From IMG/VR virus record IMGVR_UViG_2531839531_000012: a stretch of 31,354 bases of DNA. One strand, 5' to 3'. The notes beneath the pieces are model-generated. The model saw nothing but the letters and a program-made list of their open reading frames with translations, did not search any database and was not told the origin of the DNA. This DNA is from a virus. Taxonomy: Duplodnaviria; Heunggongvirae; Uroviricota; Caudoviricetes. Made by a program: the position numbers and the translations under genes. The stretch's first letter is position 1; each line of letters begins with the position of its first letter. Below are positions 1,529 to 20,679 of this stretch, in pieces.

Positions 1529-2218
<690 letters not shown>

Positions 2219-2290
2219 TATGGCACCTGTGTTGTTCTGAGGTGAGCATATCACCTCTGTTCAGGTGGCCAAATTCAGTAAACCACTTCA

Positions 2291-3071
2291 ATTTAAACAT
2301 CCTTCCTTGACGTGTGGATAGTTCGTCATAGAGCCATTTAGGAATCGGAACAGTTCTATTCTTCTTACCTTTGGTTTTGGTGAAGGTCAGCTTGTAGGGT
2401 GAGAGTTGAGCGCGTGTAAGCCTCTCGGCTTCTCCCCATCGTGCACCGGTTGCCAAACATACCTTAACAATCATCGTAAGATTTTCTTTGCCATATTGTT
2501 CACAGGCTCGGAACAGCTCCGGGAGCTGAGACAAAGTTAGCCAGGACATTTCTTTCTCAGCTTCTTTGAATACGCGAATCCCGTCCAGTGGATTGGGTAA
2601 ACTCCACTCCCCTAATCGTCGCAGTTCATTGAACACTGCTTCGAGGTATTGCTGCTCGCGATTGACAGTTATAGGTTTGGCGATCCACTTCGCCGGGTCT
2701 TTGTGATAGCCGTTGTCTATTTCGCCACGTAATCGACGGTCACGGTAATGAGCCCAATCTTTAGCGGTAAGACGAGATGCAATAGGGTCGCCCAACCCGT
2801 TACATACGATTTGAAGCTTTGCCAACCGCGACTTACTGGCTACTAACGCCTGACCGTGCAAATTGTGCCAAAGCTGAATAATCTCACTTAAGCGTCGGCG
2901 GTCTTCTTTCTTGCCGAGCCACGGCTTATCTTCACTCTCGCTTTTGGTAAATGCTTCGAATGCCTCGGCCTCACCTTTGGTATTGAATTGACGACGTATA
3001 CGCCGCCCTTCCCGGCCATTTGGATAAAGCTCACATAACCATTTACCATTTTTTTGCTTACTTACTGTCAT
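2291..3071 (-). pseudogene. int: P2/186-type tyrosine integrase, C-terminally truncated by the IS insertion
   Basis: N-terminal 260 aa (MTVSKQKNGKWLCELYPNGREGRRIRRQF...CLATGARWGEAERL...NRTVPIPKWLYDELSTRQGRMFK) has the P2 Int pattern. The segment normally carrying the catalytic H-x-x-R and Tyr is replaced by IS sequence from 2290 leftward. Confidence 0.8.
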
Positions 3072-3094: not shown

Positions 3095-3433
3095 TTATTC
3101 ACACAACGCTATAGCTTCACTGAAAATCGGGCCAATATCAGCGCTTTCTAATGAATCGTTAGGGTCTTTTTTAAGAACTTCTTTTAAATCTCGCCCTTCC
3201 ATTTTTCCTGATTTGACGGCGTTTTTAGCCATACCGCTTAGGGGGTATCGTTCATCCGTATCAATGTCATAAACAAAAACGTAGTGACTATTTACACAAG
3301 ATACCTTTGCATGCTCAAAGGTCAGCGGCCATTTATCACCAAAAGATTTAATATCAATCTCTTTGAACTTTTCAGCGGCAAAGGTTGAGGAAGAGAGTGC
3401 AATACAGATTATTCCAAATAAAAACTTTTTCAT
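3095..3433 (-). CDS. Small secreted protein with N-terminal signal peptide (possibly DUF2511/YebY-like); cargo gene between int and repressor
   Basis: 112 aa beginning MKKFLFGIICIALSSSTFAAE (hydrophobic signal peptide); two Cys in the mature part. AT-rich relative to the phage backbone. Confidence 0.6.
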   Translation of the reverse strand: MKKFLFGIICIALSSSTFAAEKFKEIDIKSFGDKWPLTFEHAKVSCVNSHYVFVYDIDTDERYPLSGMAKNAVKSGKMEGRDLKEVLKKDPNDSLESADIGPIFSEAIALCE

Positions 3434-5832: not shown

Positions 5833-6060
5833 ATGCGTAATACCGAATCACGTGGTTTTAACACTGATAGCGATGCGCTGGCCGTATTGCTGACCGATGC
5901 AAAAAAAGAAGAGCGTAAAGACCGTGCGCTCGCTGTTTCCATCCGCCTTGAGGCGCTGGCTATCCATATCACCAAAGAGGGTATGAGCGGCACCGAAGCT
6001 GCCGAATTGCTGCGCCGTGAAGCAACCCGCTTTGAGAATGAATCACAGGAGCTGCACTAA
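5833..6060 (+). CDS. Hypothetical early protein
   Basis: 75 aa. RBS AAGAGAG. Charged helical composition. Confidence 0.5.
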   Translation: MRNTESRGFNTDSDALAVLLTDAKKEERKDRALAVSIRLEALAIHITKEGMSGTEAAELLRREATRFENESQELH

Positions 6061-6281
6061 TGACTGACGCAATGGATTTAGCACAACAGCGCGAGCAGGA
6101 AGACCGCGAGCGGCACATCAACACCGCACGCAGTCGCACCGTAGCGCCCTCTCGTTTTCTCTGCGAAGAATGCGACGCACCAATCCCGGAAGCACGCCGC
6201 GCTGCAATTCCGGGTGTGGCGTTTTGCGTGACGTGTCAACAAATCAATGAGCTCAAATCTAAGCATTACAGGGGCGTGTGA
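6060..6281 (+). CDS. TraR/DksA-family C4 zinc-finger protein
   Basis: 73 aa with CEECDAPIPEARRAAIPGVAFCVTCQ (C-x2-C...C-x2-C). Same position as the TraR-like ORF upstream of A in P2-family phages. Confidence 0.8.
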   Translation: MTDAMDLAQQREQEDRERHINTARSRTVAPSRFLCEECDAPIPEARRAAIPGVAFCVTCQQINELKSKHYRGV

Positions 6282-6326
6282 TGGGCGAAAGCGCGTCTGA
6301 GGTTATCAACTGGAGCTGGCCATCGT

Positions 6327-8552
6327 ATGACAAAATATACTTTTGCTTTTCCGTGGAATGCCCCACGGTCGGCAATAGTCAGTCCATATCTTACCTACGA
6401 CCAACAGTATCGCCGCGACCGTATGTTCGCGGCTTTGCTGCATGCGAAAAAGGTGCTTTCTCTCCAGCCCGACTGCGTGCGGTTAGATGTTTATCGCACT
6501 GCTGCGGTGCTGGAGCAAAATCAGGGCAGTCAACGAACCAATGCCTTTTTAATCAGCTTCTGCAAAAAGGAATTGCCGCGTCTTGAACTGGTCGCAAAAA
6601 AATACGAATGCGCGGGTATCAACAGCAATGTATCAACCGCTGTTTTTGGAGGTCATTTTGATACCCAGCTTATGCAATATCTGGCGTCTCGCATGGTTAA
6701 TATGGTCGCCCGATATAACCGCCTCCCGGACATGTCGCGCGCTGATGTTGACCTGTTGGCCGCTGATATTGCTAATTTCATTCGTGGTGAACTTGCCAAC
6801 ATTGATGACAACGGATTCGGCGAGCTTAAAACGCTGTACACCTGGTATATCCGTGCTGGCTTTATTTCCCTCCAATTCAACGTTATCCCACCACATTGGG
6901 ATCGGGTTGCAAAAAAATATGTCGGCGCGGATGAAATCGCACCGGCTATCGCCAAGATGTTTAACGATGGGTGGTGGCGTGGTCGTTTGCGCCGTGTTGC
7001 GGCTACTTGGCGCGAACACCTGCAAATTGCAGTCGGCAACGTCAGCAAGAAAAAAAACACCTACGCGAGTAAAAACTGCGTGACTGACTGGCGTGAACAA
7101 AAGCGCCGCACTCGTGAATTTCTCAAAGGTCTGGATCTCGAAGACGAAGACGGCAACCGTATCAGCCTGATTGAAAAATATGATGGCTCAGTTGCTAACC
7201 CTGCCATTCGCCGCTGTGAGCTCATGACCCGCATTCGTGGGTTTGAAAACATCTGTAATGAGCTCGGTTATGTTGGTGAGTTTTACACTCTAACCGCGCC
7301 GTCAAAATATCACGCCACGACTAAAGCCGGGTACCGTAACAGCAAATGGAGCGGTGCTAGCCCGGCTGACACGCAAAACTATCTAACCGGTATCTGGGCG
7401 CGTATCCGTGCCAAACTGCATCGGGAAGATGTCCGTATTTTCGGTATTCGTGTCGCCGAACCCCATCACGACGGCACTCCACACTGGCACATACTGATGT
7501 TCATGCTGCCGGAAGATGTTGAATATGTTCGATCCATCGTCCGTAAATACGCATGGAAAGAAGACCGCCACGAACTGAAAAGCGATAAAGCCAAAAAAGC
7601 ACGTTTCCACGCCGAGGCCATTGACCCGGAGAAAGGCAGCGCAACCGGCTATGTTGCTAAATACATCTCAAAAAATATCGACGGTTATGCTCTCGATGGT
7701 GAAACCGATGATGAAAGTGGTGAACTGCTGAAAGAGACAGCCCCCGCCGTTTCAGCATGGGCAGCGCGCTGGCACATCCGTCAGTTTCAGTTTATCGGTG
7801 GTGCGCCGGTGACGGTCTACCGTGAGTTGCGTCGCCTCGCTGATACCGAAACCGCGCACGGCCTGAGCGTTGAGTTTGCCGCCGTCCATGATGCCGCCGA
7901 CGCAGGTGACTGGGCTGGTTATGTTAATGCGCAGGGTGGGCCGTTTGTCCGTCGCGATGATTTACAGGTGCGTACACTGTATGAACCCCGTACCGAGCTT
8001 AATCAGTACGGTGAGGAAACGGTATGTATTAAGGGGGTCTACGATTCCTCCATAGGTGCAGGAAGCCCGATTTTAACCAGGCTTACTCAGTGGAAGATTG
8101 TTCCGAAGCGTGCTGTTGATTTGGCCGTTGACCTTCAGGACGGCAAAGCCGTCCCTCGGAGTTCTGTCAATAACTGTACGGGAAGCGAAAGCGATCCACC
8201 GATACTGGATTTAACAAAACCACTGAGTCGGCGTGAAAGACGAGAATTGACCAACCGACTCAGGAAGCAAAAGCCAGCAGCACGGCGAAAATTCATCCAC
8301 GGAACGGATGAGCAAAACGCAGCTATAGCTAAAACTATCGACGAAATACATCTGACAACCGGCATTAATATCAGCCGGGGCGAAGCCCTGCACCTGATGG
8401 CCGGTGGTAAAAGTTGTTTTGATGGTAAATGGCTACGCGGAACGGCCAAAGGAGAAATATTTTCCGCAGCACCATCGCATGAGGCTAAAGCTCGGAAAAT
8501 CCTTAATCGTGTTGCGGCGATGGCTGAAGCATCAAAACCAATACATAAGTAA
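6327..8552 (+). CDS. A: Replication initiation protein gpA (rolling-circle nicking endonuclease)
   Basis: 741 aa. Contains HWHILMF and YVAKYISK (active-site Tyr region). GGAG-type RBS. Confidence 0.9.
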   Translation: MTKYTFAFPWNAPRSAIVSPYLTYDQQYRRDRMFAALLHAKKVLSLQPDCVRLDVYRTAAVLEQNQGSQRTNAFLISFCKKELPRLELVAKKYECAGINSNVSTAVFGGHFDTQLMQYLASRMVNMVARYNRLPDMSRADVDLLAADIANFIRGELANIDDNGFGELKTLYTWYIRAGFISLQFNVIPPHWDRVAKKYVGADEIAPAIAKMFNDGWWRGRLRRVAATWREHLQIAVGNVSKKKNTYASKNCVTDWREQKRRTREFLKGLDLEDEDGNRISLIEKYDGSVANPAIRRCELMTRIRGFENICNELGYVGEFYTLTAPSKYHATTKAGYRNSKWSGASPADTQNYLTGIWARIRAKLHREDVRIFGIRVAEPHHDGTPHWHILMFMLPEDVEYVRSIVRKYAWKEDRHELKSDKAKKARFHAEAIDPEKGSATGYVAKYISKNIDGYALDGETDDESGELLKETAPAVSAWAARWHIRQFQFIGGAPVTVYRELRRLADTETAHGLSVEFAAVHDAADAGDWAGYVNAQGGPFVRRDDLQVRTLYEPRTELNQYGEETVCIKGVYDSSIGAGSPILTRLTQWKIVPKRAVDLAVDLQDGKAVPRSSVNNCTGSESDPPILDLTKPLSRRERRELTNRLRKQKPAARRKFIHGTDEQNAAIAKTIDEIHLTTGINISRGEALHLMAGGKSCFDGKWLRGTAKGEIFSAAPSHEAKARKILNRVAAMAEASKPIHK

Positions 8553-8626
8553 TTCATATCCATATCATGCACATACAGCAATCGCTCTATTCGTTTTTTT
8601 TCTTCCCATCTTTTGCCAATACGTGC

Positions 8627-8646
8627 TACTGTATAAATATACAGTA
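8627..8646 (+). promoter_or_regulatory. LexA (SOS) box overlapping a putative promoter
   Basis: TACTGTATAAATATACAGTA matches the CTGT-N8-ACAG consensus at 19 of 20 positions. TTGCCA lies upstream at 8613-8618 and TATAAA/TATACA overlaps the box. Confidence 0.75.
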
Positions 8647-8665
8647 ACCCTATGGGAGGGATTTC

Positions 8666-8848
8666 ATGGTTGGCGAACATTTCAGCCGAACGCAGCAAAA
8701 GTGGGCTTGTGTGCAATTTATTGCCGAGGTATCTCTGATTGCAAACTGCAAGCCATCAGACTTAAAGCTCGCGCTCACTCTCATTGCAGACCTAGCAAAC
8801 AGCGAAAATAACGAAACCGAAGATGATAATTTTTATAAGGCTGATTAG
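8666..8848 (+). CDS. Small SOS-controlled protein; possible Tum-like antirepressor N-terminal module
   Basis: 60 aa. GGGAGGG RBS 5 nt upstream. 20 bp downstream of the LexA box. Ends at TAG in the same frame as the following DinI-like ORF. Confidence 0.5.
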   Translation: MVGEHFSRTQQKWACVQFIAEVSLIANCKPSDLKLALTLIADLANSENNETEDDNFYKAD

Positions 8849-8851
8849 ATT

Positions 8852-9085
8852 ATGAGAATCAATATCACGTTGGATAAAGAGCAAAAAATTAGTCAGGCAA
8901 CGTTGGATGCACTTGAGGCTGAGCTGTACCGCAATCTTCAACCTATTTACCCAAAGACTGCTATCCGCATTCGTAAGGGCTCAGCTAATGGCGTTGAGTT
9001 AAGCGGTTTGAAACTGGACGAAGATAAAAAACGAGTAATGGAAATCATGCAGCAGGTATGGGAGGACGATAGCTGGCTGCATTAA
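8852..9085 (+). CDS. DinI-family protein
   Basis: 77 aa (MRINITLDKEQKISQATLDALEAELYRNLQ...DEDKKRVMEIMQQVWEDDSWLH), collinear with recalled E. coli DinI (MRIEVT...DALAGEL...EDKQRISEILQETWE...W). Confidence 0.8.
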   Translation: MRINITLDKEQKISQATLDALEAELYRNLQPIYPKTAIRIRKGSANGVELSGLKLDEDKKRVMEIMQQVWEDDSWLH

Positions 9086-9088
9086 CAA

Positions 9089-9165
9089 ACGCCGTCGGTG
9101 CTGAATCTTGCTTTCAGTGCTGGCGGGGTTGAAACTGGCTCCGAGAGGTGTTAGTTCTACCTTTC
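9089..9165. repeat. Copy 1 of a ~75-bp imperfect direct repeat (immediately 3' of the DinI-like gene)
   Basis: AACGCCGTCGGTGCTGAATCTTGCTTTCAGTGCTGGCGGGGTTGAA...GTTAGT aligns with 9492-9568 at roughly 80% identity. Confidence 0.6.
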
Positions 9166-9278
9166 AAACTTTCTCGATGTTTTATTGGTTACACACCGGT
9201 GATTAATGGGACGTTACCTTAGAGGATTTTATAGTGGCGCTTTGACAGCACTGAATAAAATTCATTGAGGGCGATAAT

Positions 9279-9488
9279 ATGCATCGACTACCGGGCGAAA
9301 TTCCGCAGCACAAAACTAAAAGCATAAAACTGATGGCTATCGTTCATCGCTTGCAGACGATAATGGTCAATGAGAACCTGACGCCAGCGGAATTGGTCGG
9401 GTGTGCAGAAATAGTCAGGGATAACTACGATAAGCTGAACGATATCAGCAGGCCGACACAATATGCGCCACCACCATGTCGAAGATAG
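9279..9488 (+). CDS. Hypothetical protein (69 aa) flanked by the direct repeats
   Basis: GAGGG RBS 8 nt upstream. No recognisable motifs. Confidence 0.45.
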   Translation: MHRLPGEIPQHKTKSIKLMAIVHRLQTIMVNENLTPAELVGCAEIVRDNYDKLNDISRPTQYAPPPCRR

Positions 9489-9491
9489 CGA

Positions 9492-9568
9492 ACGCCGTCG
9501 GCGCTGAAACTTGCTTTCGGTACTGGAGGGTTGAACAACGAGTCCCTCTAGGGGTTAGTCTGTTCCGT
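9492..9568. repeat. Copy 2 of the ~75-bp imperfect direct repeat (immediately 3' of the 69-aa ORF)
   Basis: AACGCCGTCGGCGCTGAAACTTGCTTTCGGTACTGGAGGGTTGAA...GTTAGT; see copy 1. Confidence 0.6.
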
Positions 9569-9580
9569 AGAGATTGGCCC

Positions 9581-9606
9581 AAACCGGCACTATTAAAGCC
9601 GGTTTT
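9581..9606 (+). terminator. Rho-independent terminator
   Basis: AAACCGGC-actattaaa-GCCGGTTTT followed by TCG: 8-bp stem and a T-run. Confidence 0.6.
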
Positions 9607-9706
9607 CGTATGTCCAATCTAAAGAATGGGGGCTGACATCCCATCATCAGATTTGTGTTATTTTAGTGCTACTCATTCGTCATTAGACATTGTAAGGGCA
9701 ATGTAT

Positions 9707-10417
9707 ATGAAACCAAGCACACACTGCGTTTATTGCGGTGTTCTCATGAATAAGGTTGAAAATCACCCCCACTGCCGCTCAGTTGAACACATGATTCCGC
9801 AAGTTTCAGTCTCCATTCATAGAACCAACGGCGAAGGTGATTTCTATGTATGCAAAAAGTGCAATGGCGATAAAAGCCGAATTGACGAGGTGTTAGGTGT
9901 CATTTGCCGCATGGTAGGAGAGCACTCAACAGGCAGCTTTGATGCTGTTAATAAATTCCATAATGCGCTTAAAAGAAAAGACTCGAAATTTCGTGAAGCA
10001 TTCCAGAGTGTTAGGCATACAAAAAAAGGTGCGCAGATAACATTACCCCTAAATGGTAGGGAGATTTACCAATACGGCACCTGGTTAGCCAAGGGAGTAT
10101 TTTTCTTAGAGTATGGGCAATTGTTGACTGTAGATAAATTAATTTGGATTAATATCGTTCGCCACGATGAAGTAATGGCTATTAAAGAAATGTATAGAAA
10201 TGAACGTGGCTCTGAGGCATTTGATGATTTATCGAAGAATAGCAACATTCCAAATATTAATGGCGAGTCGTTTCTGATTGTTGGCCAGGATGCCCGAGAA
10301 ATGTTTATTTGCTTCAATAGAGTAATGATGTTTCATATAAAGATACTGGATAGAACGTTTATTAATCAAAAAAAATGCAAAAAAGCCCTACTCAATCTGG
10401 AAAAAAGGGTTCGATAA
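9707..10417 (+). CDS. HNH nuclease-domain protein with an uncharacterised ~160-aa C-terminal domain; cargo gene in the A-to-cos variable region
   Basis: 236 aa from the Met with a TAAGGG RBS. N-terminus has C-x2-C (CVYCG), EHMIPQ and CKKCNGDK, an HNH-type arrangement. Distinctly AT-rich. Terminator-like hairpins on both sides. Confidence 0.7.
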   Translation: MKPSTHCVYCGVLMNKVENHPHCRSVEHMIPQVSVSIHRTNGEGDFYVCKKCNGDKSRIDEVLGVICRMVGEHSTGSFDAVNKFHNALKRKDSKFREAFQSVRHTKKGAQITLPLNGREIYQYGTWLAKGVFFLEYGQLLTVDKLIWINIVRHDEVMAIKEMYRNERGSEAFDDLSKNSNIPNINGESFLIVGQDAREMFICFNRVMMFHIKILDRTFINQKKCKKALLNLEKRVR

Positions 10418-10442
10418 GATAAATAAGATGTAATGAATGTGT

Positions 10443-10463
10443 GCATGCCACTGCATTTTTTTG
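10443..10463 (+). terminator. Weak candidate terminator after the HNH gene
   Basis: ATGC-cact-GCAT followed by T7 (10456-10462), with flanking GCATGC palindromes. Confidence 0.35.
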
Positions 10464-10562
10464 CATGCGTTGATCCAACCGCCAAAACATAAGGAGTACC
10501 GGTAGTAGCTTAGCTAAAGCGAGGTCATGCAACTGCATTAAAACCGACCCATAAAGCGGGCA

Positions 10563-10581
10563 GGCGTGGCGGGGAAAGCAT
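10563..10581. other. Candidate cos cohesive-end sequence
   Basis: GGCGTGGCGGGGAAAGCAT resembles the 19-nt cohesive end recalled for P2 (GGCGAGGCGGGGAAAGCAC) and 186. It lies in the non-coding stretch beyond the portal gene's 3' end, where cos sits in a P2-family prophage. Confidence 0.55.
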
Positions 10582-10807
10582 TGCGCGCCAGCGGTGGTGC
10601 GTATTATTAAAAAATACCGTCTGAGTGCGTTGTGGTGGAGCTAACGAGAGCGTTGCTAGATCGTGGGAGTTCTGATGCGAACGTGGGGCTATGTTTTGTC
10701 TGTGGAGCGATGAGAGAGGGTGAGATCAGTCGCACAATTCTACGGCTGTGCTTCCGTTAATATCTTCATCGGTATGTCATGTTCCCTACCAACAGCTGGA
10801 GGCTTTA

Positions 10808-11032
10808 ATGGATAACTATCACATTACAAAAGATGGCGATAAGTGGAAGCTTCAAAAGGAAGGAAATGAGCGGCCTAGCAAGACTGCAACAACTAAGGCT
10901 GAGATCATCAAAGATACTCAAGATTACATGTCCAATAAGACTGGCTCAGTAAAAATTCACAAAGAGGATGGGAAGTTTCAGGAAGAGCGCACTTACCCTC
11001 GTAAAGCTGATCCTAAAAAGTCCAAAGGTTAA
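10808..11032 (+). CDS. Small DUF2188-like protein; cargo gene between cos and the portal gene
   Basis: 74 aa from the internal Met (MDNYHITKDGDKWKLQKEGNERPSKT...KIHKEDGKFQEERTYPRK). GGAGG RBS. AT-rich. Confidence 0.55.
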   Translation: MDNYHITKDGDKWKLQKEGNERPSKTATTKAEIIKDTQDYMSNKTGSVKIHKEDGKFQEERTYPRKADPKKSKG

Positions 11033-11042
11033 TAAAGTCAAA

Positions 11043-11060
11043 GCCGCCATGATTGGCGGC
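11043..11060. terminator. Bidirectional terminator hairpin between convergent genes
   Basis: GCCGCCA-tgat-TGGCGGC: 7-bp GC stem with A/T-rich flanks, between the + strand ORF stop (11032) and the portal stop (11070). Confidence 0.6.
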
Positions 11061-11069
11061 TTAACTGGA

Positions 11070-12116
11070 TTATTCCGGGTTGTCGAGGGTGTACTCTTTG
11101 AACCTGATGACCTCTATACCGAGCCAGTCGTTTACCTCCCTGAACCTGTCCTGCAGCGGCGACAGCTCGTTACGCACAAATACCTTTGCCACCTTCTCAA
11201 CGTCACCGAGTGAGCCGATATTCTCGGGCTTGCCACCCATTAGCTGGAACGGCACGCGGTGCGCATCCATCAGGTCGGCGGCACTGGCTTTCTTGATATT
11301 GAAAAAGTCATCCTTTGTGGCGACCTCGCTCAGTGGCACGATTTTGATGCCGTCCGGTTTTCCGCCGGGGGCGTAGAAAAACAGGTTCTTAAAGTTGCCG
11401 AGCCCTTTCGAGTTACGCATCGCCTCGCGTAGTGATTCGACGTCGGTCGCGCTCTGCGCCGGGTCGGTCACATACATGATGTAGCCCGCGTGCGCGCCGT
11501 TCTGGTAATACTTGCGACGGAACAGCGTCGCGGATTCATTCAGCCAGGCAGAATTAAGCGCGCTGAGATATTCCGGCAGGCCGTAAATCTCCTGATTAAT
11601 ATCAGGCTCCAGCAGGTGAAACACGGTGTCAGGCGCGAACTCATGCGGCTGAGTGAAGTTTTCCACAAACCAGAAAATTGAATCATCAACCCCACGGCGG
11701 GTGTATTTTGCTGGTGATGCCAGCAACTTGATTAACTGGCCGGTGACGCTGTGGCGCTGCTCAAGAAAAGCGTTGCCGAAGACCAGATAGTCGAGAGCAA
11801 AACGGCTGAAATCCTGACGGGACAGCAGCGGGTGCGGAATGTAGGTGCTCGCGAGTACGTTGCGTTTAACGTAAATCGGTGAGCTGTGATGTACGGCAGA
11901 GCGCAGGCTCTTTGCCAGCCCGGAAAAGCTGACCGGCGGCTCGTACCATTTGCCGTTACTGATGCACTCGACATAATCCAGAATGTCGCGCTTATCGAGC
12001 ACCGGAACTGGCTCACCGAAGGTGAACGCTTCCATTTTTTGCGGTGCGCTGGCTTTCAGTTGCTGTGGTGCGCGTGTTTTCTGCGCGGCGGCTTTGCGGG
12101 ATTTTTGCTTACCCAT
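11070..12116 (-). CDS. Q: Portal protein gpQ
   Basis: 348 aa. P2 Q-like length and sequence. Adjacent to cos and divergent from the O operon. Confidence 0.85.
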   Translation of the reverse strand: MGKQKSRKAAAQKTRAPQQLKASAPQKMEAFTFGEPVPVLDKRDILDYVECISNGKWYEPPVSFSGLAKSLRSAVHHSSPIYVKRNVLASTYIPHPLLSRQDFSRFALDYLVFGNAFLEQRHSVTGQLIKLLASPAKYTRRGVDDSIFWFVENFTQPHEFAPDTVFHLLEPDINQEIYGLPEYLSALNSAWLNESATLFRRKYYQNGAHAGYIMYVTDPAQSATDVESLREAMRNSKGLGNFKNLFFYAPGGKPDGIKIVPLSEVATKDDFFNIKKASAADLMDAHRVPFQLMGGKPENIGSLGDVEKVAKVFVRNELSPLQDRFREVNDWLGIEVIRFKEYTLDNPE

Positions 12117-13885
12117 TAGTTGAACTCCAGAATAGATTTAGGCTGCATGCCGCTACCGGCAGAAAGCGGTTCGTTTAACAGGGCGTGCATGGTCGCCCAT
12201 GCGATATCGGCGTGACTGGCTTCCTCGGTGCGGCTGGCCTCGTAGGTGGCGCTGCGCCCGCTGCTGGTCATGGTTTTGCGAATCGACATAAACGACTGCG
12301 TGACGTCGGTTGCCCCTGCGTCGTACTCCAGACAGCCACGGCGAATGGTGTCTTTTGCCTTGAGCACCATTGCGGTTTTCATTTCAGGTGTGTAACGGAT
12401 GCCGCGTGCTGCCGGGTAGAATGAGCGCACCAACTGGAACACGCCGAGGCCGAGGCCGGTTGCGTCAATGCCGATGTATTCGACGTTGTATTTCTCGGTC
12501 AGCTTGCGGATGCCCTCTGCCTGCGCGGCAAAGTCCATGCTTTTCCATTGGTGGCGCTCCAGCATGCGGAACTTGCTACCCGAGACCACCGGCGGTGCGA
12601 GCACGACGCACCCGGCACTGTCGCCAGTGTGCGACGGGTCGTAGCCAATCCAGACCGGGCGAGAACCGAAAGGATGGTCGGCGAACGGGGCAAAGTCCTC
12701 CCATTCTTCCATCACATCGACCATGCAGCGCTGCAGCTCCTCGAACGGGAATACCGATGCTTTATCGTCGACAAACTCGCACATAAACAGGTTTTTAAAA
12801 TCATCATCACTGTTTTCTCGTTTGAGCTGGTCGAGGTCGAACAGGGTGCAGCCCCCGGCAAGGGCATCCTCAATGGTGACAATCTGCCGCCACTGGCCAT
12901 CGTCGCAGAGCTGACCACCGGCGAGCGCGCGGTGACTGATGTCGATTTCGATGCGGTCAGCGGCACTGGCGCGCCCCTTGTTGAACAGCTCACCAGACCA
13001 GAAGGGGTAAGCCCCGTGCGCCAGTGTTGAGGGTGTCGAAAAGTAGGTCGAGCGCAGGTGCTTCTGCGAAGCCATGCCCGAGGCGACTTTGCGCAGTTTC
13101 TGAAAGTTCGGGATCCAGAATATTTCATCGACATACAGGTCGCCGTTATGGCTCTGCGCGGTGTTGGAATTGGTACCGAGAAAAATCAGTTTTGCGCCGT
13201 TGTTACCGATGGCAATCGGGTCGCCGGTCAAGTCAACGTCGACCAGTCGTGCAAACTGGATGATGTATTCGCGAAACACGTAAGCCTGCGTTTTACTGGC
13301 TGATAAAAATATCTGGTTATGGCCTGTTTTGAGCGCGCGCAGCAGCGCCTCGCGGGAGAAATAGAACGTCGCACCAATCTGGCGGGATTTGAGAATGTCA
13401 CGAATACGGTGCTCCAGTCCTGCGCGGTACCACTGCAACTGGTACTCGAAAGACTGGTCGAAAAATAATTCCTCCAGTTTCTCGATAGCCTCGTCGCTGA
13501 AAAAATTCTTTTTCGGCTTTTTGCGCTCCCCTTTGTTGCGGTTGGCGACGTTGGGGTTAAGGTCGGCTTCGTTGCCGGTCTGGCTGTAGCGGTTGACGCG
13601 CGCCAGCCGCTCAATCTGCCGCCCGAGCAGGTCAATCTCTTTGAAATCACAGCCCGTCTTCTGTGGTTTCGCGATGAGCTGAATCAGGCGCGCCTCAAGG
13701 CTGCTTTCAACGCGGGAAATCGGTGCGATGCCGTCCCAGCCGTCGCGCTGCTTCCAGCTCTGCACGGTCGGGCGCTTGACCTGCAGCATTTCGGCAATCT
13801 GTGGCACGGAAAAGCCCTGCCAGTAAAGCAGCGATGCCTGTCGTCGCGGGTCATGCAACAAGGTTGTATCGGTGGAAATGGTCAT
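12116..13885 (-). CDS. P: Terminase large (ATPase) subunit gpP
   Basis: 589 aa. P2 P-like. Overlaps the Q start by 1 nt. Confidence 0.85.
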   Translation of the reverse strand: MTISTDTTLLHDPRRQASLLYWQGFSVPQIAEMLQVKRPTVQSWKQRDGWDGIAPISRVESSLEARLIQLIAKPQKTGCDFKEIDLLGRQIERLARVNRYSQTGNEADLNPNVANRNKGERKKPKKNFFSDEAIEKLEELFFDQSFEYQLQWYRAGLEHRIRDILKSRQIGATFYFSREALLRALKTGHNQIFLSASKTQAYVFREYIIQFARLVDVDLTGDPIAIGNNGAKLIFLGTNSNTAQSHNGDLYVDEIFWIPNFQKLRKVASGMASQKHLRSTYFSTPSTLAHGAYPFWSGELFNKGRASAADRIEIDISHRALAGGQLCDDGQWRQIVTIEDALAGGCTLFDLDQLKRENSDDDFKNLFMCEFVDDKASVFPFEELQRCMVDVMEEWEDFAPFADHPFGSRPVWIGYDPSHTGDSAGCVVLAPPVVSGSKFRMLERHQWKSMDFAAQAEGIRKLTEKYNVEYIGIDATGLGLGVFQLVRSFYPAARGIRYTPEMKTAMVLKAKDTIRRGCLEYDAGATDVTQSFMSIRKTMTSSGRSATYEASRTEEASHADIAWATMHALLNEPLSAGSGMQPKSILEFN

Positions 13886-19893: not shown

Positions 19894-20679
19894 TTATAAA
19901 GTTAAGTTTATCCCCAGCTCTTTTTTTGCAATATCTAATACATATTCGGAATTACTCCAAGAACCATTGGTGTCTCCACAACACTCAGGGCTCAGGCATA
20001 TGGTCAAGCAGGCTATTTTATTCTTATCAATGCCCGCCCTTACTGTTTTAAATAACTCCTTAATGAACGCGTCATCAATAAATTTAAGATAATGTTCACC
20101 TGTGAAGAAGTAGTCAAGATCAATATTGATGATGATTTTTTCATGGTTATCAATGGCGCTATCTAAATTCTCAAGAAGCTCATAAGGCTCAATGTCTCTG
20201 AAGCAATGATTAAAAGGATTCTGCGGGTATGTGCCATCATTGTGTGTTGCTAGATAAATACACTCAATATGGTTTTGAAGTGCATCATCTGAAATAAAAA
20301 AGGATAGATAATTATCCCACCGTATCAGTGGTGTTTTATTACCACCGACTGTTACCTCTAGACTTAAGTAGTCTAGATAGGATTTTAAATTGAACACCCC
20401 CGGAAATTTACTTATATAGGGTTCGTATAGGTTGAGAGTATCATAATGCCTATCAATATGAAATAATGCGATATTTTTATCAGGCTGTAAGTGTTGCATC
20501 CAGCACCATAGTGCGATTCTATGATTGTCACTAATGTATATATTACCATCCTGAGCAAGGAAGTTTAAATTATATGCCAATGATGGGCCTTTTTGGGTTG
20601 GCGGAATTAACAACTTCATAAGAACTCCATATAAAATATGTTTTCCCAGCAATGCTAACGCAAGAGCAATGCTTTTCAT
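19894..20679 (-). CDS. AT-rich cargo gene of unknown function between S and V, on the opposite strand to the late operon; possible metal-dependent hydrolase
   Basis: 261 aa (alternative start at 20619 with GGAG RBS). Motifs FHIDRHYD and INIDLDYFF. Strong compositional contrast with the flanking late genes. Confidence 0.65.
   Translation of the reverse strand: MKSIALALALLGKHILYGVLMKLLIPPTQKGPSLAYNLNFLAQDGNIYISDNHRIALWCWMQHLQPDKNIALFHIDRHYDTLNLYEPYISKFPGVFNLKSYLDYLSLEVTVGGNKTPLIRWDNYLSFFISDDALQNHIECIYLATHNDGTYPQNPFNHCFRDIEPYELLENLDSAIDNHEKIIINIDLDYFFTGEHYLKFIDDAFIKELFKTVRAGIDKNKIACLTICLSPECCGDTNGSWSNSEYVLDIAKKELGINLTL

Follow-up and report, generated by a model that had tools for sequence, protein, structure and literature searches.

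Organization of the cos-proximal locus

The window, by which we mean the entire 31,354-nucleotide stretch analysed here, is a 186/PSP3-type (Eganvirus-like) prophage of the P2 family. In its right-hand region the replication gene A (6327-8552) is followed by a LexA box at 8629, tumA (8666-8848), dinI/tumB (8852-9085), a gp37-like ORF (9279-9488) and a plus-strand ORF of 236 amino acids (9707-10417), referred to below as the HNH gene. Across the cos core GGCGTGGCGGGGAAAGCAT (10563-10581, plus strand, read directly from the window sequence) lie a DUF2188 gene (10748-11032, plus strand), which occupies the interval between cos and portal, and the minus-strand genes for the portal (11070-12116) and large terminase (12116-13885) proteins. 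The linear PSP3 record ends at the equivalent of window position 10562 and the phage 186 record starts at 10563, marking the edge of cos. The HNH stop codon is located 145 bp upstream of the cos core, and the HNH gene is thus the last gene on the right arm of the packaged genome. A LexA-box-like palindrome, CTGTATAAATATACAG (8629-8644), lies just 5' of tumA, so that the variable region begins directly after an SOS-controlled operon; the tum function of 186 is here split into tumA and a DinI-like tumB, as in PSP3.

The original prediction assigned this slot to a locus that in P2 holds old and tin and serves as a hotspot for defence genes, which the literature confirms: the gpA-gpQ (A-to-cos) locus is a documented defence hotspot, contains old and tin in P2, and occurs in 1,650 arrangements in E. 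coli (PMC9122126). P2-type hotspots also hold cargo unrelated to defence, partition systems and toxins among them. Of the eight P2-hotspot systems newly cloned in the Rousset study, only about three conferred a phenotype, most candidates having none (PMC9122126). The locus table of that study has an entry reading 'hypothetical + DinI + hypothetical + hypothetical + DUF2188', the first accessions of which are tumA and DinI of strain Ecol_545 (PMC9122126). This entry is probably the present arrangement, left unannotated; if WP_001544861 is the HNH protein, the arrangement appears in the table solely as 'hypothetical' genes.

Start codon and composition of the HNH gene

The 236-amino-acid plus-strand ORF at 9707-10417 is present as first described, and all of its reported motifs, C7-V-Y-C10-G, E27-H28-M-I-P-Q32 and C49-K-K-C52-N53-G-D-K56, were recovered. 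Public annotation places the start of the gene at three different positions, giving products of 263, 236 and 223 amino acids. The 223-residue RefSeq (PGAP) call, with its start at 9746, removes the first CxxC and thereby two zinc ligands, and the 263-residue call, with its start at 9626, adds sequence that is not conserved across clades. In an alignment of eight loci from different clades, nucleotide conservation starts exactly at the ATG at 9707. Just 5' of this ATG a purine-rich Shine-Dalgarno sequence is found at the same position in every clade (AAGGG at 9694-9698 in the window, plus strand, 8 nt before the ATG), and the first CxxC is retained by all full-length homologues. On these three grounds we place the start at 9707.

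The AT-richness noted previously is real: the GC content of the ORF is 0.390 against 0.527 for the window, within the lowest 2% of 711-bp windows, and is distributed unevenly between the HNH part (0.454) and the remainder (0.362). The adjoining small hotspot genes are GC-poor as well (0.41-0.48), so the HNH gene stands out against the structural genes (0.55-0.57) and not against its immediate neighbours.

The N-terminal domain is an HNH nuclease module

Residues 1-72 (9707-9922, plus strand) can soundly be assigned to the HNH superfamily as a putative HNH_5-like, zinc-finger nuclease domain in which the full catalytic set is conserved. Four cysteines (C7, C10, C49 and C52) make up the CCCC zinc site of this HNH subclass. 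Of the catalytic residues, E27-H28 lie where strand 1 ends and N53 and K56 where the helix begins, in a beta-beta-alpha fold as in other members of the superfamily. In an alignment of 38 sequences sharing 17-62% identity, the catalytic H28 is invariant and the acidic metal ligand that precedes it, E27 (or D), is at least 90% conserved, as are N53 and C49; C52 and K56 are invariant, and D45-F46 is also conserved. The complete set of invariant or near-invariant positions comprises E27, H28, P31, F46, C49, C52, N53, K56 and D60, together with G130 of the C-terminal domain.

The window protein gave no match to Pfam or NCBIfam even at E <= 1. When its relatives were scanned singly, 12 of the 38 matched HNH_5 (best E = 1e-6) and 3 of the 38 matched HNH. 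A profile of the close family retrieved chance kinase matches only from the PDB sequences; the profile of the whole family matched the HNH endonuclease 4h9d (E = 1e-5) and the HNH domain of Cas9 (E = 0.008) in the register CxxC...(D/E)H..P...CxxCN..K, E27-H28 falling on the DH/EH pair in 4h9d and in the Cas9 structure 4ogc. It is the Pfam matches of the relatives and these PDB matches in catalytic register that make the HNH assignment sound. The predicted architecture of an N-terminal HNH domain joined to an unrecognised C-terminal domain is therefore upheld, the direct Pfam match being confined to relatives.

The C-terminal domain has no recognisable relative

The remainder of the protein, residues 73-236 (9923-10417 with the stop codon, plus strand), was originally described as a stretch without recognisable motif. 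These approximately 165 residues indeed match nothing in Pfam or NCBIfam, and fold searches of PDB and BFVD, conducted with the whole protein and with the C-terminal domain separately, found no relative. Conservation within the family nevertheless defines several motifs of its own: P114-L115, Y123-G-x-W-L-A-K129-G130-x-[YF]-F, F172-x-D-L-x-x-N178 and N183/N185/E187/F189. The domain ends in a basic helix at 218-235. An AlphaFold2 model built on the family alignment (pLDDT 84, pTM 0.85) consists of a beta-beta-alpha unit followed by an alpha/beta domain, and its pTM indicates that the two would pack as a single globule. The calculated pI of the C-terminal domain is 9.75 and that of its tail is 11, a basic character consistent with nucleic-acid binding; Pfam detects no NUMOD, IENR1 or HTH-type DNA-binding module in this part of the protein. 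Comparison of the window copy with the 85%-identical copy of P13-6 yields a dN/dS of 0.09 overall, 0.11 for the HNH domain and 0.07 for the C-terminal domain. Thus, both halves of the protein are under strong purifying selection (dN/dS about 0.1).

Hairpin, leader and cos flank

The left edge of the mobile module is a hairpin (9581-9605, plus strand) composed of AAACCGGC, a 9-nt loop and GCCGGTTT, followed by TCGT. Its 8-bp stem and a folding energy of -13.5 kcal/mol give it a moderately significant z-score of -2.5. The hairpin fails a strict terminator scan because its loop exceeds 8 nt, and it is also found in the P13-6 copy. It is probably a weak terminator or insulator separating the SOS-controlled tum operon from the HNH gene. 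The leader that follows (9606-9706, approximately 100 bp, plus strand) is conserved between the window and a related locus, L002, and may contain a promoter. By eye, we could discern a candidate extended -10 promoter, TGTTATTTT (9656-9664, plus strand), and an alternative consisting of CTGACA (9633-9638), a 17-nt spacer and TGTTAT (9656-9661) on the same strand; in a consensus promoter scan of the leader no plus-strand promoter passed.

The gene had been described as bracketed by terminator-like hairpins. The upstream element stands, with the z-score given above, but its proposed downstream counterpart at 10443-10463 has a z-score of -1.0 and folds like shuffled sequence. This 'hairpin' is in fact three TGCAT repeats phased at 10 bp (10442, 10452 and 10462). 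They belong to the right-hand flank of cos (10437-10562, plus strand), which lies outside the cassette, contains a fourth TGCAT at 10534, and is conserved in all P2-like loci examined, whether or not they contain an HNH gene, including PSP3. Because the repeat region is retained in phages lacking the gene, it is part of the backbone and does not bracket the cassette on its downstream side. The TGCAT array at 10442-10466, together with an ATGCA/TGCAT pair nearer to cos (10527-10538), is conserved among P2-like phages of several genera and is a candidate binding array for terminase or an accessory protein.

The HNH gene is carried in an exchangeable module

The segment common to the window and the differently placed copy in P13-6 is exactly 9580-10417. 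The exchangeable module is, therefore, the hairpin, the leader and the ORF. Sequence identity of the gene is decoupled from that of the portal: at one locus (L010) the gene is 100% identical to that of the window and at another (L002) 86%, and the portal is 97.4% identical in both. Between the window gene and its L002 counterpart (6001-6711), dS rises from 0.21 over codons 1-72 to 1.37 over the remainder. This step in dS, coupled with closely similar leaders, indicates a recombination breakpoint that would lie inside the HNH gene, near the domain boundary.

Comparison of the same slot across related prophages revealed the cassette swapping that had been anticipated. PSP3 contains gp38 here, P13-6 a diverged copy accompanied by a PD-T4-6 kinase gene, and a Kosakonia locus has a PDC-S25 SIR2 gene upstream. 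Between genera, on the other hand, divergence of the HNH protein broadly follows that of the portal, so the gene appears to be a long-standing resident of a P2-like sub-lineage as well as a locally exchanged cassette. The earlier view of an independently acquired cassette thus holds for local exchange, as seen in the decoupled identities and mosaic dS, but not for the deeper history, in which divergence tracks the portal and residence in the sub-lineage has been long.

Distribution of the family

The family is small. Among 5.8 billion proteins it forms 28 clusters at 90% identity, all from Enterobacteriaceae, and an exhaustive profile search of 1.84 billion proteins returned 84 representatives at E <= 1e-3, most of which share the architecture of approximately 235 amino acids. 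In PHROGs the protein matches phrog_31193, of unknown function, end to end. The gene is present in 7 of 5,426 complete E. coli genomes, 616 of which have a related portal, and homologues were found in 1 of 50,697 phage records, in 2 of about 100,000 species-representative genomes (close-alignment search) and on 12 IMG/VR contigs. It is absent from PSP3, 186, SEN1 and SW9. Carriers of the family include P2-like phages, plasmids and integrative elements. A literature search with the protein accessions and the PHROG gave no match, and the preprint of a J Virol 2023 survey of nuclease-containing systems does not cover the HNH protein.

Gene neighbourhoods

The HNH gene is oriented alike at every enterobacterial locus, where it comes last, or nearly last, ahead of the cos site and portal gene of a P2-like phage. 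Its upstream neighbour varies: a gp37-like ORF in the window, tumA in P13-6, a 243-amino-acid protein with an N-terminal hydrophobic stretch at four loci, a DUF6680 protein at two, a SIR2 protein matching PDC-S25 (E = 2.5e-145) in Kosakonia, and different genes again elsewhere. Downstream of the P13-6 copy, a PD-T4-6-type kinase gene (E = 9e-36) precedes cos and two unknown genes follow it, and a REase-like gene is among the neighbours at homologous loci. All-against-all clustering of neighbours at approximately 20 loci revealed no consistent partner gene, and no PtuA-type ATPase (AAA_15/AAA_21) adjoins the gene in the window or at about 20 related loci. The window DUF2188 gene beyond cos (Pfam E = 2.7e-16) matches the PADLOC candidate PDC-S16 (E = 1.4e-13), and DUF2188 is not a conserved neighbour of the family. 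The trio 'AAA_21 + DUF2188 + HNH' is listed for the P4 hotspot in the Rousset tables (PMC9122126), and a functional link between DUF2188 and HNH proteins would be worth testing. The cos-to-portal interval is a second variable slot in its own right, holding two unknown genes in P13-6 and standing empty in most relatives.

More distant members are found on elements with integrase, ParA or excisionase genes and on Shewanella plasmids; one adjoins a PDC-S15 candidate, and one distant homologue, in the accessory region of a plasmid, has a HigB toxin-antitoxin pair nearby. A copy on a metagenomic element overlaps the 3' end of the HTH gene that precedes it, and a chromosomal copy in Shewanella (L008) is situated among metabolic genes. 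On the NDM-carrying Shewanella xiamenensis plasmid pHD6416-NDM (L036, 7001-14678), a 28%-identical member lies directly upstream of genes for an 858-amino-acid AAA ATPase and Dsr1, an annotated anti-phage sirtuin. The locus resembles a defence island and is the only one with a large ATPase nearby. A fringe member, P0097 (profile E about 1e-4; L032 5460-6438 and L034 1609-2587), is flanked on one side by a class II ribonucleotide reductase gene and on the other by a small GIY-YIG gene, surroundings in which homing endonucleases are typically found.

Comparison with known systems

A defence-system scan with PADLOC, one of the checks attached to the original prediction, made no known-system call; it returned weak matches to the core of PtuB, and no PtuA. 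The window protein matches the PtuB profiles at E = 2e-4 and its relatives at values down to 1e-8, with 22 of the 38 members matching. The match is limited to an HNH core of about 60 residues (residues 5-65, aligned with positions 50-108 or so of profiles about 220 long, at approximately 20 bits), and similarity over the full length of PtuB was not found, with one weak exception (P0105, residues 7-150). PtuB, of Septu and retron-Septu, is the protein whose profiles come closest to the HNH core; it is similar in size (about 220-240 amino acids), and like the HNH protein occurs in phage and satellite hotspots. Its HNH motif, however, lies at about residue 50, whereas that of the HNH protein is at the extreme N-terminus. 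PtuB alone is not toxic and acts cooperatively with PtuA (PMC12640716), whereas the HNH protein is always without a partner. Membership in Septu is ruled out by the missing PtuA and by the restriction of similarity to the core.

The HNH modules of Cas9 and Gmet_0936-type proteins (HNH_5/HNH; 4h9d, 4ogc) share with the HNH protein the register CxxC ... (D/E)-H-x-[IV]-P ... C-x-x-C-N-x-x-K, and its 'EHMIPQ' and 'CNGDKS' run parallel to 'DHIVPQ' and 'NRGKSD' in SpCas9. The likeness is confined to the catalytic module; the context, the partners and the rest of the protein are unrelated. The McrA-type HNH enzymes of type IV restriction are prophage-borne single polypeptides with neither a methyltransferase nor an NTPase partner. 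We take the HNH protein to resemble them as a single prophage-borne polypeptide with an extra domain that possibly reads the substrate, and a type IV-like mode of action is conceivable by this analogy; the fold search detected no known modified-base reader fold. The old and tin genes of P2 are found at this locus in a phage of the same type, and a logic of prophage exclusion would match theirs, but the HNH protein has no homology to Old (an ATPase-TOPRIM protein) or to Tin, and PADLOC gave no such matches. The HNH protein thus lies outside Septu, Old, Tin, the packaging-HNH group and the known homing-endonuclease families.

A proposed single-gene defence or exclusion nuclease

We propose, with a probability of roughly 0.5, that the HNH gene is a self-contained accessory ('moron') gene of the gpA-gpQ hotspot encoding a single-gene defence or exclusion nuclease, the specificity or control of which would be provided by its C-terminal domain. 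This proposal draws on the intact and conserved nuclease domain, the equally conserved novel domain, the lack of a partner, the occurrence of the family on several kinds of mobile element and the presence of known or candidate defence genes among its neighbours. Weighing against it are the failure of PADLOC, Pfam and NCBIfam to classify the protein, the non-defence cargo and frequent lack of phenotype among hotspot genes, a leader in which no promoter passed the consensus scan, the L008 copy among metabolic genes and the homing-like surroundings of P0097. In such a scheme, the gene would be transcribed in the lysogen from its own leader and be insulated from the tum operon with its LexA control. 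Specificity or control would be built into the protein in the form of the C-terminal domain, which would prevent the nuclease from attacking host and prophage nucleic acid and direct it to an infecting element, with the result that competing phages would be excluded.

How an invader would be told from self is pure inference. Direct recognition of a feature of invader nucleic acid, following the logic of type IV restriction, is possible and is slightly preferred by us; release of an abortive-infection nuclease by a trigger is the more doubtful of the two. The target of the HNH domain could be DNA or, by analogy to some PtuB relatives, tRNA. A bolder version, which we advance tentatively, holds that the protein may be a new one-polypeptide immune system in which the novel C-terminal domain senses a nucleic-acid feature or a protein of the invading phage and licenses the HNH domain, with no ATPase, methyltransferase or antitoxin. 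The module would then be a minimal sensor-effector beside cos, exchanged among phages, plasmids and integrative elements.

'Hypothetical' hotspot genes with nuclease domains are common, and an HNH cassette as such will not surprise specialists. What is new is the fusion of an HNH effector to an undescribed domain, in a cassette that stands alone within an established defence hotspot. If protective, it would rank among the smallest nuclease-based defence systems, at 236 amino acids and without a partner, would bring to light a new sensor or specificity fold, and would be a further example of P2-type prophages arming their hosts. Because the PGAP start drops the first CxxC and the window copy falls below Pfam thresholds, the family, to whose label that start call probably contributes, is 'hypothetical' everywhere and invisible to defence-finding pipelines.

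Alternative explanations

The HNH gene might instead encode a selfish, free-standing homing-type endonuclease that cuts P2-like genomes lacking the gene near the cos-proximal junction and spreads by recombinational repair, to the benefit of neither host nor phage. Several observations fit such an element: the distribution is sporadic (7 of 616 related prophages, 1 of 50,697 phage records), the gene is AT-rich and has its own leader, its right junction consistently abuts the conserved cos flank, the mosaic dS within it suggests recombination tracts, and P0097 sits between ribonucleotide reductase and GIY-YIG genes. We nevertheless regard homing as unlikely. Beyond the lack of a Pfam-detectable NUMOD, IENR or HTH-type module, no 'empty site' allele was seen, and alternative alleles hold other cargo, such as gp38 in PSP3, which argues for cassette replacement. 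Long-term maintenance, as opposed to cycles of invasion and decay, is indicated by the strong purifying selection acting on each domain and by a divergence that follows the portal across genera, and other members reside on plasmids and integrative elements beside defence genes. Were the protein nonetheless a homing-type nuclease, or one directed against satellites, it would be relevant to the reshuffling of the cos-proximal hotspot.

A second possibility is that the nuclease serves the lytic programme of the phage itself or its rivalry with other mobile elements, for example by degrading host DNA once the prophage is induced or by attacking rival plasmids or P4-like satellites that share cos. 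The gene is just downstream of the LexA-boxed tumA/dinI operon, from which SOS-induced read-through could occur, and 145 bp from cos, the only region common to P4 satellites (PMC9122126); the occurrence of the family on several kinds of mobile element also agrees with such rivalry. This role likewise seems unlikely, since the hairpin at 9581-9605 stands between the tum operon and the gene, and about 99% of related prophages do without the gene, which is evidently not needed for the lytic cycle.

An addiction module, in which some unrecognised small protein or RNA serves as antitoxin to an HNH toxin and the prophage is thereby stabilised, is distinctly improbable. HNH nucleases are potentially toxic, and both the plasmid homologue near the HigB pair and the metagenomic copy that overlaps an HTH gene would suit such a module, but no small ORF or other partner is conserved beside the gene at approximately 20 loci, Rfam finds no RNA in the region, and the exchanged module contains nothing besides the hairpin, leader and ORF. 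The Rfam scan, which covered 8400-11200, produced nothing credible; a weak match to the enterobacterial sRNA STnc430 (11030-11100, minus strand; 30 bits against a gathering score of 47, E = 0.04) overlaps a terminator-like hairpin (11062-11041) just 3' of the portal stop codon, and is probably merely the portal terminator.

Terminase-associated HNH genes of HK97-like phages occupy the same relative position, and the HNH protein has in common with HK97 gp74 the HNH fold and a place beside cos and the packaging genes: its gene is the final one on the near side of cos, and those for portal and terminase lie just beyond. Yet a role in assisting terminase cleavage at cos, already judged unlikely in the original prediction, is effectively refuted by distribution, as the gene is found in only 7 E. 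coli genomes against 616 with a related portal and is missing from relatives that share the cos core and the type of terminase, PSP3 and 186 among them. In addition, the terminase has a nuclease domain of its own (Terminase_6C), the HNH protein is twice as large as packaging HNH proteins and has an extra domain of 165 amino acids, and homologues are borne on plasmids.

Other features of the prophage

The integrase ORF (2187-3071, minus strand) is unusual in its C-terminal sequence and is overlapped by an ORF resembling orfA of an IS3-family transposase (1916-2254), and in strain Ecol_545, which carries the same prophage, the major capsid gene is interrupted by ISEc12. Given both features, the prophage may be defective. 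Between the integrase and CI repressor genes lies a DUF2511 gene with a signal-peptide-like start (3095-3433, minus strand). Finally, a second AT-rich island (19894-20679, minus strand, GC about 0.35) is found between tail and baseplate genes. It contains an opposite-strand ORF of 261 amino acids with a weak Pfam match to UPF0489 (E = 5.5e-8) and none in PADLOC, which is probably cargo of the other P2-type moron slot.
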